Made by a program: the position numbers and the translations under genes. 64,000 bases of DNA from Octopus vulgaris (Eukaryota), in assembly GCA_951406725.2 (NCBI GenBank), contig OX597816.1:71114001-71178000 (forward strand). The letters run 5' to 3'. Below are positions 3,879 to 63,049 of this stretch, piece after piece; position 1 is the first letter of the stretch; each line of letters opens with the position of its first letter. Below the pieces are notes generated by a model, which made no database searches, had not been told where the DNA came from, and saw nothing but the letters and a program-made list of their open reading frames with translations.

Positions 3879-4035
3879 AATTCGAGTCGACAACTTTATA
3901 TATAACACCATATCTCAAACATTTGATCCTATATAAATATTACCATGGTTCTTACACATATGAAACCATGGTAATATTTATATATGATCAAATTTTTGAT
4001 GTGTGGTGTTATATATAAAGTCGTTGACTCGAATT
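3879..4035. repeat. Older imperfect palindrome
   Basis: Arms of about 72 bp with several mismatches; right arm starts GAAAC catg GTA. Confidence 0.88.
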
Positions 4036-5194
4036 ATCTCTGTCTCAGTTACATTTGATCACTTCTTTTTTGTTTCCATAAAAAGAGACAAAATTATTTC
4101 TAGTGTATATATATATATATGAAAATAGTAAGCAAGCTATCGAAGAGTGGGTTAGCTACAAAAAACATTGAGAGGCACTGTCTTAGATTCGTTCCGATTC
4201 TCTGCAATCTGAGTTCAAGGACCCGCTAAGGTCACCTTTACCTCTCATCCTTTCATAGTTGAATTTAAAAAAGTACCAGTAATTGGTTATATTTCTACAA
4301 TATGCAAAATATTTAAAGAATTTTTTATACCCTTCCTAATAATATTAAATTATAGAAAAATATTTTTTTAACATTGGATGGTTAAAAGAGTCTCAGTAGC
4401 GTAGCTAGAGTGGGTGGAGGGGTGGTCCGCCTTCGGTGGCACTTTTGTGGGGGCGGCACCACTTTTGGGTCTATTGTAGGCCATATGTATTTTTGTGGGG
4501 GCTCGGGGGAGACAAACTGAATAGCAGCCCCGGACGCGAAATTTTTTCCCACGAGAGTTCCGGATCCCAGTTATGAACTCATTTGCATACATCCAATCAG
4601 AGCTCAACTATCAAACTAATTTATGAGCGCATAACAAGATGGGTAAGGAATGACCGTGCTTCTTTTCTCTTTTGATAATGGTTGTTGTTCTTGTTCTTGT
4701 TTCAACCATGGCTGCCTCTGCGTAGTTATTTGTGTTGTTGTTTACTTTCTAAAACAATAAGGGGAGAGGGTTGCTATCACATCACCTTCTACCTACATTT
4801 TCCCCATCCTCATCTTTACCATATGGGGCCCTAACAAAATCCGATAATCGGTATAGATGCAAATTTATCTAATTACTTCTCTTAACCTATATGACATGAC
4901 ACGCTATAGGTAAAGAAATTTGAGAAGAAAATACGAAAGTGGTTATTTCTCCAAACATTATGTTACTATACGCAAAATGTTATAACATTTTTCTAACATA
5001 ACGACTTAAATATATTCTTTAACCACATAACACAAGCCTTCTGTAGTTCTTTCACTCTTTTTTGTTTACTATGAACTTTTAACCTTATTTTAATTAGCGG
5101 TCATTGAATTAGCGCTTTTATATAAGTAGCGGACTATAACACAGTAATTTCCCTTTGTATAACGGTCTTTTTTCATAGCGTTTTTCAGATGACC

Positions 5195-5257
5195 AGATAA
5201 CCGAAGAGATGGTGTTGTGGATTTTCACCTCGGCATCCGAAACTCAGAGTTCTATCT
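5195..5257 (+). ncRNA. Hammerhead, U4C variant
   Basis: agataa CCGAAGA gatg...catcc GAAAC tcaga GTT ctatct. Confidence 0.6.
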
Positions 5258-5540
5258 TGGCTACCGAATAATTGTCACATATTATTTTACAGATAAATTT
5301 CCTCTATTTACATACTAATGAGGTCTCTTTCTTTCTTTTGTTATCTTACCGTTTTTACCAATATATATAATTAGGTGGCAAATATACTTCACGATGTCGT
5401 GCAGCTACTGTTTATACCTCGCTCAGAGATTTATTATTGCTTCTTTCCACTTTTCCCAGATCAGTGACTTTTCGTCACTGGTAATAGTAAATTTATATAT
5501 TTGCATTGAGAACCACTTCCCATCGCCAATCGGTAGTTGT

Positions 5541-5585
5541 CACACGCTGATGACGGATCAGTACCCAGAAACTCGGGTCCGCGTG
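5541..5585 (+). ncRNA. Minimal type I hammerhead
   Basis: cacacg CTGATGA cgg-atcagtac-cca GAAAC tcgg GTC cgcgtg; lies between direct repeats taggtggcaa.ta.acttcacgat (5372 and 5732). Confidence 0.72.
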
Positions 5586-7119
5586 TATCACGTCAGGCTG
5601 GAGACGGGAATGATTACTTATCTTTGCAAATACTGATAGGACACAGATAGTGTGTCAATAGCCAGATGGAGGAGATGTCTTCCTGGGGCTACAAGCTATA
5701 GTAGCATCGACCCTTAAGGGTTAGCCACATTTAGGTGGCAAGTAGACTTCACGATATACATATATATATATATATAAATATCCATGTATCCATATATATA
5801 TATATATATATATATATATATATATACATACATACATGTATTCATGTATGTATATATATATATATATATATATATATATATACATACATACATATATATA
5901 CATGTGTATATATATATATATATATATATATATACACATACATACATATATATACATGTATATATATATATATATATATATATATATATATATATATATA
6001 TAATTAACATTACACACACACGTGCATACATACAAGTATGTATGAGTAAATTTGTGTGTGCGTGTGAGAATGTACTTATATATATATATATATAAACACA
6101 TGTATATACATATATATACATATATATACACACACATGTATATACATACATATATATATATACATATACATATGCATATGTATACATATACACACACGTG
6201 TATATATATATATATGTGTGTGTATATAAATATGCAAGCCTCTATGTGTGTGTATGTATGTTACGTATGTATGAACATATGTATTATGTCCGTATAATAC
6301 ACGTCTCTACTATAAAATTGGAACAAGCAACAGGAATAAACAGATTTAGAAGATAAGATTTTATAACTACGTAAAAGCTGTTACCAGACAGAAATATATT
6401 AATTATGAAATATTCAACAAAGGCACAAACATACGCGCACACACACACATTAGAAACGCGTACGCAGACACATATATGTATGAATGCGCATGCGTGTGTG
6501 TAAATATGCAAGTCTCTGTGTGAGTGTGCGTGTGTGTGTGTGTGTGTGTGTGTGTGTATTTTGTTTTTGTTGAACTTCTATTCAAAGTTTCAAAGCTGTT
6601 ACAGTTACTACTATAAATATGTTTGTCAATGTATGAATACATGTATGCATATATGTGTGTATATGTGAGCGTGTATGTATGTATGTATGCATGTATGTAT
6701 GTATGTATGTATGTATGTATGTATGTATGTATGTATGTATGTATGCATGTATGCATGTATGTATGCATGTATGTATGTACGAAGTTTCTCATTTTAAATG
6801 TAATTAGGAAAATATGGATTTCGAGGAAATATATTTATATTAATTACTAATGATAAACATAGACACTAATTAGGATACGTTTACACTTATAATTTGCCTT
6901 TCAAAAAATATACGTTCATCGCTTACATTTCCTTTCTCTCTCTCTCTCTCTCTCTCTCTCTCTCACTCTCTCTCTCTCTCTCTCACTCTCTCTCTCTTCT
7001 CACCAATGATAGATAGATAGATAGATAGATAGATAGATAGATAGATAGATAGATAGATAGATAGATAGATAGATAGATAGATAGATAGATAGATAGATGG
7101 ATCAATGTGTGTGTATCTT

Positions 7120-7832
7120 TGTGTCGGCGTTTGTTACCCCTCACCCACATCATCGCTTGGCAACTGGTGTTGGTGTGTTTACGCCCCCGTAACTTAGCGG
7201 TTCGGCAAAGAGACCGACAGAGTAAGTACTAGGCTTAAAAATAAGTCCTATTGTCCAATTGTTCGAAGAAGCATTCCTAGGTGGTGCTCTAGCATGGCGG
7301 CAGTCAAATGGCTGAAACAAGTAAAAGAGTATATATATATATATATATATATATATATATATATATATATATATATATGTACGTATATAGAGAGAGAGAA
7401 AGCGAAAGAGAGACAGAGTATATATATTTGGTAGAATATATATATATATACACTCTCTCTCTTTATTCTTTTACTTGTTTCAGTCATTTGACTGCGGCAA
7501 TACTGGAGCAGCGCCTTTAGTAGAGTAAATTGACCCCAGAGCTTATTCTTTGTAAGCCTAGTACTTATTCTATCGGTCGCTTTTGCCGATCCGCTGAATT
7601 ACAGGGACGTAAACACACCAATATCGGTTGTCAAGCGATGTTGAGGGGACAAACACAGACACACACATACACATACATATACCAGTTTCCGTCTACCAAA
7701 TCCACTCGCAAGGCTTTGATCAGCCCGAGACTATAGTAGAAGACACTTGCCCAAGGTGCCACGCATTGAGACTGAATCCGGGACCATGTGGTTGGTAAGC
7801 AAGCTACTTACCACACAGTCACTCCTGCGCCT
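7120..7832. mobile_element. CORE-like SINE family: plus-strand tail 7120-7330 and minus-strand copy 7460-7832
   Basis: Same sequence as 52922-53712; tail-to-tail across (TA)n. Confidence 0.82.
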
Positions 7833-61148: not shown

Positions 61149-61523
61149 TACCGAAATATATTGTATGATACTATTAGAAGGGAGAAATAAAATCGATCAC
61201 GTGACTAATTTGAAACATGTTGCACGTTTTTTCTTTGTTTTGAGCGTCTTGCTGTGAGGTGGATGATTTGAACTGGTTAAAGGAACGTGCAGTATCCATC
61301 GGTGACGTAAGGAAGGTGGAGTGTGAAGATGGTAACGTAAACAAATAGTAAAAAGCCTGAAGTTGGCTTCGAAGATAGAATGAATTTGGTAACGAAGACA
61401 GTTGCTGTAAAGATGTGATGTGACCAGTCGAGGTGAACCCGGGCGACAAAGAAGCACATTACAGAAAACATCGCACCAGGTACGACTACTTCCTCTCTAA
61501 GAAAGTTGGCTTGCTGGACTGGC

Positions 61524-61757
61524 CTATTTCTTTACTACCCACAAGGGGCTAAATACAGAGAGAACAAACAAGGACAGACAAACGGATTAAGTCGATTATA
61601 TCGACCCCAGTGCGTAACTGGTACTTATTTAATCGACCCCGAAAGGATGAAAGGCAAAGTCGACCTCGGCGGAATTTGAACTCAGAACGTAACGGCAGAC
61701 AAAATACGGCTACGCATTTCGCCCAGCATGCTAACGGTTCTGCCAGCTCACTGCCTT
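61524..61757 (-). mobile_element. Nin-domain SINE monomer
   Basis: Same family; 18-bp TSD ttggcttgctggactggc. Confidence 0.88.
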
Positions 61758-62574
61758 GGCTTGCTGGACTGGCATGTGGTTTCCTAACTGCTGACTTGAC
61801 TGTTGGAGCCATGTTGGTGTCAGGAGGCCACATTTTGCAGCAATACTGTAATAAACAAGTTCTGAGGATACATAATTCTCCATTCTTTTTATAATGTCGT
61901 GTGTTTTATAATGTAGTGACGGTTACCCGGTTTTCATAGCGAGGTTACAACGTTGCCGCTGAATGGGACGCCAGTCGCACGCAGGTTTACTCTTTTACAG
62001 CTGAGCGGACTGGGGCAACGTGAAATGAGGTGTTTTGCTTAAGAACACAACACACTGCTTGGTTCGGTAAACGAAACCTCGATATTGCTTGTAACAGCCT
62101 AACCACTAGGCCACAAACCTGCACTGTGTGTGTGTGTGTGTGTGTGTGTGTGTGTGTGTGTGTGTGTGTGTGTGTGTGTGTGTGTGTGTGTGTGTGTGTG
62201 TGTGTGTGCCACCTGCTTGATCGCAGGGTTTTGACGGAAAATGTATTTTTCAGTTCTATATTTAAGAGATGAAGAATTATGTACATTTACATTATTTACA
62301 TTCAACGGATATTTGTCCTCATCTTTGTTGTTAACACAACGTTTTGGCTGATATACCCTCCAGCCTTCATCAGGTGTCTTGGGGAAATTTCGAACCTGGG
62401 TTCTCGTTCCTAAGGTATTTTTCGATGTTGTTGTTGTTATTATTATTATTATTATTATTATTATTATTATTATTATTATTATTATGCCCGTGGGCATATG
62501 ACATAGTGGTTAAGAGCGCGAGCTACTAACCCAAAGATTCTGATTTTGATTCCAGACAGTGACTTGAGTAATAA

Positions 62575-62740
62575 TCTTTATATATATAAAACTGAGAATG
62601 TGTGTGTGTCTGTCTGTCTGTCTGTGTGTTTCCCTAAAACTTGAGAACTACACAACCAATTTCATTCAAATTTTACACATGCCTTACTTAGGGTCCGGGG
62701 AGTGTCATCGGCAAAAAAAATGTTTAACTTGTTGCCTAAG
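62575..62740 (+). mobile_element. 5' part of a different Helitron-like element inserted into a SINE-like element
   Basis: A|TCTTTATATATATAAAA start, (GTCT)n tract, aaccaatttcattcaaattttac motif typical of Helitron/HINE bodies. Confidence 0.55.
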
Positions 62741-62812
62741 AAGAAGAACGACAACAACAACAACATCGAAAAATACCTTAGGAATGAGAACCCAGGTTCG
62801 AAATTTCCCTAA

Positions 62813-62858
62813 GACACCTGATGAAGGCTGGAGGGTATATCAGCCGAAACGTTGTGTT
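62813..62858 (+). ncRNA. Minimal type I hammerhead ribozyme (mutated mirror copy 62333-62378)
   Basis: gacac CTGATGA a ggctg-gagggtatat-cagcc GAAAC GTT gtgtt; helix III reduced to the palindrome AACGTT. Confidence 0.78.
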
Positions 62859-63049
62859 AACAACAAACAAGATGAGGACAAATATCTGTCGAATGTAAAT
62901 AATGGAAATGTATTTTTGTTCATCCTTTAAATCTTAAGAAGGTCTTGCAGATTTTTATAGCCTCAAATATCCTAATCATACGAATTAGGTATTTGCATTC
63001 TCTCCCCGAGATCCAAAGTTCAGCTATACTTTGCTCAAGGTGCGTCGAT

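Follow-up and report, generated by a model that had tools for sequence, protein, structure and literature searches.

Nine palindromes lie in a 64,000-nt stretch of the Octopus vulgaris genome, here called the window (contig OX597816.1 of GCA_951406725.2; G000:C3:71114001-71178000 of a 2.8-Gb animal assembly). They are back-to-back insertions of the ends of Penelope-like elements (PLEs), an architecture already known for these retroelements. We show that their outer ends are both element 3′ ends, lying at one of two fixed sites and nearly always one at each, and that their centres vary. Counts of splice state, tail side and arm length in these families, named after their window loci, favour a sense, spliced RNA template primed twice over self-priming on an antisense transcript. 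The common polarity is not new and is in print (PMC3846280, PMC8557442; published sources are cited throughout from excerpts of their text). What we add is the counted rule that nearly always only one arm bears the 3′ tail, together with precisely spliced arms in family 24727.

A single polarity in the window and across the genome

Inverted repeats were called by self-comparison of the window with microsatellites masked; TA/CA microsatellites and short interspersed elements (SINEs) are abundant in it. This comparison, together with reading of the letters, recovered all nine repeats at the places given in an initial annotation, with arm identities of 86-100%. Every one is head-to-head, as that annotation had proposed (two-sided p = 0.004). 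The remaining repeats of the window are SINE pairs, a transposase-like element flanked by terminal inverted repeats (33059-33981) or repeats without a family, and the number of tail-to-tail assignments is zero.

Polarity is marked by hammerhead ribozyme motifs. Five right arms carry a complete type I motif on the plus strand, and at 54184 a complete plus-strand motif lies in the spacer, as had been noted. Loci 55757 and 59145 hold the 3′ half only; longer genomic copies supply stem I and the CTGA.GA half that these loci lack, and we therefore take both to be true ribozyme halves. The earlier statement that a sense hammerhead or its half marks the right arm at the eight loci other than 54184 stands for the five motifs and two halves and fails at 3879-4035, where GAAAC-CATG-GTA is no ribozyme half and most family copies have AAGAACCATGG at that spot. 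This family has its hammerhead on the same strand, ~370 nt upstream (L410, L413, L417), and because the ribozyme strand gives the polarity, the 3879 locus is still head-to-head. A ribozyme split by an intron was rejected at this locus, as a complete ribozyme is present upstream.

Orientation is likewise not 50:50 across the genome. An exhaustive search with exact 24-mers from two families gave 75 and 84 matches, including 5 + 10 opposite-strand pairs within 10 kb, and the order was minus-left/plus-right in 15/15 (p = 6e-5). In arbitrary DNA (77 stretches of 10 kb, 770 kb), a strict ribozyme descriptor alone oriented 5 of 144 inverted repeats (4 vs 1), and family orientation was therefore added. 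This left 118 repeats unassigned and 8 mixed, with 15 head-to-head and 3 tail-to-tail; once three SINE-only rows were removed by eye (L043, head-to-head; L107 twice, tail-to-tail), 14/15 were head-to-head (p = 0.001). The sole tail-to-tail case consists of two copies separated by TA tracts and another repeat.

Family 62283 has an inverted partner at 14 of 28 other loci, upstream in all 14. Among the 30 best loci for the hammerhead model RF00163, most of them in other families, an inverted partner lies upstream at 8, one of which also has a weak 47-nt downstream match; the other 22 have none. A downstream inverted copy was found at 2 of 171 family loci, and the one inspected (L176) is an older adjacent head-to-head insertion. 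Contigs from three other runs, under three organism labels, cross 58884-family centres with the same polarity and many breakpoints; they support that family rather than the single window locus, and raw-read depth was too low to confirm the nine window loci singly. Elsewhere, at G000:C1:158286080-158294217, two tandem arrays of the 537-nt unit of family 55757 stand head-to-head.

Nearly always, exactly one arm carries the tail

Each family has two 3′ end points, a distal site (A) and a proximal site (B), and the sequence by which A exceeds B is referred to here as the tail. This family-specific 3′ end is present on exactly one arm at all nine window loci, and it accounts for the earlier remark that one arm usually extends further. 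The count covered 171 loci of six families, including those of the window; no partner was detected at 68, and 7 had an uncalled end. The others comprised 95 A/B and one A/A, so that of the 96 loci whose two ends were called, 95 have exactly one tailed arm. The lone A/A (L055) is due to another family 700 nt away. For families 24727 and 58884, the only two whose queries were neutral as to end type, the rule held at 21/21 and 28/28 loci. An enlarged 24727 set of 63 loci, 46 of them with two arms, gave 44 A/B, one B/B and one A/A.

The one-tail rule is independent of arm length. Of 16 loci with unequal arms, 7 have the tail on the long arm, 8 on the short arm and 1 on both. Some tailed arms (L183, L251, L058, L266, L272, L280, L027) start within or at the tail and have almost no sequence in common with the other arm. 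Four further loci (L173, L188, L191, L192) have only 10-20 nt of the left arm, next to a non-TA left flank, with L191 lying within the open reading frame (ORF) of another PLE; these are either later deletions or snap-back junctions.

Short arms of family 24727 are precisely spliced

Long copies of family 24727 contain a predicted GT-AG intron of ~1.3 kb, 27 nt past an initiator-like sequence that we take as the putative start site. Both arms of the window palindrome lack the intron precisely. To count this across the family we used the 75 exact 24-mer matches, which form 73 distinct rows. In 52 of these 73 arms the intron is spliced out; the upstream probe is absent from all of them, none extends more than 16 bases upstream, and all end at A (31) or B (21). 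The intron is kept in the other 21 arms, 20 of which have upstream sequence and 1 a rearranged upstream, giving a strong association between splice state and upstream sequence (p = 5e-17). Among loci in which the junction is present in both arms, 23 are spliced on both sides and 4 (5 rows) unspliced on both, and none is mixed. The four commonest haplotypes each occur in both states (52/9, 17/7, 4/4 and 6/2 spliced/unspliced arms), and an older subfamily has the same exon junction, which together argue for repeated intron loss, as by splicing, rather than a single deletion. Precise splicing of the short arms in turn points to a sense template.

Palindrome centres cluster at a defined 5′ end and do not track the predicted ribozyme cut, within 3 nt of which only 1 of 88 falls. 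By eye, about six arms of 24727 (L180, L376, L318, L308, L361, L358) and two of 11315 (L147, L327) have an untemplated G just before the start, which is suggestive, but only suggestive, of cap copying. Among 43 junctions of family 24727, 25 show an overlap of 0-5 nt, 7 contain 2-19 nt of filler and 11 were unparsed; these, and most junctions of 11315, were left out. The overlap is at least 3 nt in 11 of the 25 parsed blunt or overlapping junctions, compared with ~7% by chance. Subfamily markers match between arms at 6/7, 6/6, 4/4 and 4/4 loci; arm discordance in family 62283 was put down to query selection and CpG change and was not used.

The parent elements of two families are Penelope-like

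The attribution to Penelope, made initially from the window alone, is borne out by the sequences upstream of two families. Copies of 11315 lead into a PLE ORF with matches to RVT_1 (E = 4e-8) and GIY-YIG (E = 3e-5) in broken copies. Family 24727 is the pseudo-long terminal repeat (pLTR) and 5′ untranslated region (5′UTR) of an element with 781- and 822-aa ORFs, in which reverse transcriptase (RT) and YIG motifs and an asparagine-rich insert are visible. These ORFs had no Pfam hit, and their Atlas feature hits scored 0.96 to eukaryotic RT/HTH_animal clusters; nothing was returned by a PDB search or by comparing the 11315 and 24727 parent ORFs with each other. From motifs, we take 11315 to be Neptune-like (a Cys cluster before GIY-YIG) and 24727 to be Penelope/Poseidon-like (no Cys cluster, YRDD). 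A pLTR in partial tandem with an inverted 5′-truncated copy upstream is present in L351-L356. At L352:2845-5310 (minus strand) and in L351, the PLE ORF with its long asparagine-rich insert, of a kind known from rotifer Penelope, is nearly intact and young.

Two families consist of non-coding units in tandem, ~600 nt long in 54184 and ~537 nt in 55757. L076/L077 was rejected as the parent of 54184, being a 2.9-kb duplication with a neighbouring GIY-YIG fragment. Miniature inverted-repeat transposable elements (MITEs) and other DNA transposons have symmetric termini and an interior that stay fixed from copy to copy; the palindromes instead have asymmetric termini, variable centres and many one-arm copies.

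Two probable primings on a sense RNA, and alternatives

We think it probable that each palindrome is generated by two primings on sense RNA, one per cut DNA end. The element's protein would cut both strands of an AT-rich target, after which one DNA end would prime at A and the other at B, in the same ribonucleoprotein and probably on one RNA. The resulting complementary DNAs (cDNAs) would reach the RNA 5′ end or stop early, and their 3′ ends would be joined via microhomology or short filler and then filled in. Because two sense-primed cDNAs meet by their 3′ ends, head-to-head polarity would be forced. If A and B of the 5′-most pLTR were used, both cDNAs would be run-off products of 170-250 nt that end at the spliced 5′ end; if a downstream pLTR were used, its intron would be unspliced, yielding long intron-bearing arms. 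The ribozyme may be a passenger that marks the sense strand, with the template mostly uncut. The initial annotation had suggested a stereotyped integration mechanism, which is supported, and had offered fold-back or twin priming as its form; simple fold-back is disfavoured by the data below, and a twin-priming-like route fits.

A stricter version, in which twin priming is obligatory and uses two fixed sites on one capped sense RNA, is put forward more tentatively. If true, short palindromes would be pairs of 'strong-stop'-like cDNAs that ran off the spliced 5′ end, in some cases with an additional G copied from the cap, and introns would survive in long copies only because the intron of a downstream pLTR is unspliced. 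Polarity, one-sided tail and intron retention would then come under one model, replacing the antisense-template hypothesis.

Several observations weigh against two primings on a sense RNA. A single family supplies the splice evidence: for 11315, an indel of 195 nt was considered as an intron and rejected, since the junction retains the would-be donor, leaving no precise splice there. None of the 52 spliced arms reaches the ORF, and the sole upstream pLTR seen next to an ORF, that of L352, is unspliced; full-length copies may therefore use another RNA pool. The tail rule has exceptions in L297 (B/B), L309 (A/A) and J352 (B/B, with the flank duplicated too), and in four of the six families the query chose the main-arm end type. 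The marker match between arms is weaker in older families and does not tell one RNA from two RNAs of one source. In addition, the in vitro work excerpted from PMC11167929 found the same start sites on both strands, and coupling of A and B to opposite ends was not seen there.

A single reverse transcription could also yield one tail, equal splice state and common markers, if an A-primed cDNA reached the RNA 5′ end, snapped back and copied itself to B, with later asymmetric deletions at the centre. Such fold-back could account for the small snap-back hairpins at the centres of L173, L188, L191 and L192, for the locus-private variants of 24727 (22 common to both arms vs 62 on one arm) and, through overrun, for A/A loci. 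However, it requires the tailed arm to be the longer, whereas at 8 of 16 loci in a family with nearly 100% identity the tail sits on the shorter arm. Nor can arms that start inside or at the tail and their tailless long partners be mutual copies without frequent large deletions. We consider fold-back unlikely.

The same polarity would result if an asymmetric protein dimer primed two independent RNAs at a double-strand break, or if the endonuclease trimmed the tail from one end at resolution, the latter being a model in print (PMC8557442, in excerpt). A/A and B/B exceptions would be natural under these schemes, which we nonetheless regard as quite improbable: mixed spliced/unspliced loci number 0/27 although 21/73 arms are unspliced, and trimming leaves tailed arms that never reach B unexplained.

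Self-priming on an antisense transcript, as reasoned in the excerpts of PMC3846280, gives head-to-head repeats with introns kept. The intron is indeed kept in 21/73 arms, and this route may hold for long copies or for other clades. An antisense RNA, however, cannot lose a sense GT-AG intron, and 52 arms in four haplotypes lack it precisely. If intronless palindromes were themselves copied through antisense RNA, shared centres, a fixed tail side and many B/B loci would be predicted; one centre instead has the tail on either side (L176, L312 vs L187), and B/B is 1/46. We consider antisense self-priming very unlikely. Finally, an assembly or library fold-back artefact may explain J352 and a 99% inverted duplication at the window end but is scarcely credible as a general account, as arms diverge from each other by as much as 14%, stop at family-specific sites and leave out the flanks, and contigs of the three other runs hold centre joints of the same polarity with many breakpoints.

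Comparison with known systems

In L1 twin priming, two target ends prime one RNA and the inversion is joined via microhomology; the internal site used by the second primer varies, and there is little overlap between the arms. The palindromes described here instead have two fixed sites, and one stretch is usually copied in both arms.

According to excerpts of Arkhipova 2013 (PMC3846280), head-to-head is the most frequent inverted Penelope arrangement, and antisense-template self-priming was proposed for it and also for intron retention. Those of Craig 2021 (PMC8557442) describe an inverted 5′-truncated copy, a microsatellite bias and a tail that is often confined to one end. The mechanism behind tandem and inverted PLE structures and intron retention is called unresolved in PMC3846280, PMC8557442 and PMC11167929. 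The complex insertions of endonuclease-containing (EN+) PLEs (PMC8557442, PMC3846280) resemble ours in the inverted 5′-truncated copy, junction palindromes, partial tandems, one-ended tail, microsatellite bias, pLTR hammerhead and N-rich ORF insert. Their tails measure 30-40 nt vs 40-125 nt here; in addition, the one-tail rule is counted here, and the spliced short arms, absent from the excerpts of both papers, run contrary to the antisense-template proposal.

For Poseidon_Ac of the green anole, in vitro work excerpted from PMC11167929 reports that both target strands are cut and extended, that two internal RT start sites bound the tail, that ribozyme cleavage is not needed and that the protein is a predicted dimer. 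The two systems share two fixed sites near the pLTR-ORF junction, AT-rich targets and, as proposed for ours, extension of both strands, with A and B lying just upstream of the ORF in ours; in the Poseidon_Ac excerpts the sites are not tied to opposite ends of one insertion. In D. virilis Penelope (PMC2377424), the start site is also in the pLTR with a 5′UTR intron shortly after it (46 nt there, 27 here), and inverted terminal repeats are of variable size. Transcripts are mostly spliced there and genomic copies intron-bearing; that intron is 75 nt, compared with ~1.3 kb here, and intronless short arms go unmentioned in the excerpts of that paper. The ~600- and ~537-nt non-coding tandem units of 54184 and 55757, with type I hammerheads, resemble the non-LTR retrozymes excerpted from 10.64898/2026.07.22.740005, whereas 24727 and 11315 are ends of coding elements rather than separate non-autonomous units.

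At the level of families, a literature search did not find the palindrome families of the window described. Nor did we find spliced or twin-primed Penelope palindromes reported, although Arkhipova 2003/2006, Evgen'ev and Arkhipova 2005 and Pyatkov 2004 may hold one.

The window loci and their hammerheads

The 24727-family insertion at 24650..25070 is a head-to-head pair of spliced pLTR/5′UTR copies of a Penelope/Poseidon-like PLE, with a ~85-nt tail on the left arm and its centre at the putative start site. The 27-nt exon 1 of its right arm (24896..24922, plus strand) abuts exon 2 at 24922/24923, where long copies have the intron, and its left arm carries the same junction. A canonical type I hammerhead motif (24932..24975, plus strand; core 24936) has its predicted cut after 24971 and a mirror copy at 24826-24861 on the minus strand. 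The pLTR pair at 11315..11671, from a Neptune-like PLE, has a hammerhead motif at 11522-11561 on the plus strand and a ~40-nt tail on the right arm, and its centre is a recurrent 5′ end of the family.

The right arm also carries the tail in the insertion at 3849..4105 (family 3879), where it has an internal deletion, the left arm stops at the proximal site and no hammerhead lies inside, and in that at 8025..8929, which has a 680-nt spacer and a plus-strand hammerhead motif with a U3/A8 core at 8810-8842. The tail is on the left arm at the remaining five. In the ~600-nt tandem-unit family (54090..54786) this is the short arm, and the long right arm has a long-stem-II hammerhead on the plus strand at 54511-54600. 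The ~537-nt, retrozyme-like unit (55630..56187) has a tail of ~125 nt and a hammerhead 3′ half at 56015-56026 on the plus strand. The insertion at 58815..59061 has a tail of ~70 nt and a plus-strand motif with a U4C core (58985-59022), and adjoins another at 59074..59314 with a plus-strand 3′ half (59260-59271). The last, at 62251..62905, contains an (ATT)n-bearing spacer, a canonical plus-strand hammerhead (62813-62858) and a tail of ~50 nt, and lies in an AT-rich non-TA target. Where flanks are (TA)n they would mask any target-site duplication, and no empty site was seen. Most palindrome ends in the window pass into (TA)n, as first described, but targets of family 62283 are AT-rich and mostly non-TA; TA targeting is family-dependent.

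The core CUGANGA/GAAA/UH with stems I and II is canonical at 24936, 54516 and 62818 and variant at 8810, 11526 and 58989. The variants are family-wide (U3/A8 in 8025, U3/A8 with A13C in 11315, U4C in 58884), and CpG decay with arm homogenisation was rejected as their source, the cores being common to whole families. A hammerhead-like monomer fold was obtained for 2 of 6 motifs; all six are sequence motifs whose cleavage is predicted. An Rfam search of the window found nothing at gathering score and, at E<=1, only hairpin/microRNA noise. In 11315, the 195-nt indel lies directly after the cut site and alters stem I between two subfamilies. Another abundant hammerhead family has copies at window 53859 (plus) and 19330 (minus) without an inverted partner and also supplied the single tail-to-tail pair in arbitrary DNA (L124).

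Palindromes without a family lie at 9691-9819, 32017-32269, 50217-50291, 55207-55548 and 36434-36474, of which 32017-32269 looks like a head-to-head arrangement of the 24727 3′ end. The 33059-33981 element, presumably Tc1/mariner-like, has 110-nt terminal inverted repeats (90%) around decayed transposase-like sequence and is TA-flanked. At the window end, ~545 nt of flank is inversely duplicated at 99% identity (62756-63680 vs G000:C3:71178164-71178707; L031:2756-4707). This duplication takes in the right arm of the 62283 element and has a SINE in its left copy only; its right copy sits in DNA rich in repeated TTCGAA motifs. It is tail-to-tail as to ribozyme, yet not a PLE insertion, and is possibly a DNA-transposon capture or an assembly feature.

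Implications

The young families of this genome let splice state, tail side and arm length be counted, and the counts give sharp predictions for the existing in vitro PLE system. Palindromes of this kind should be annotated as retroelement ends, not as MITEs or microRNA hairpins.

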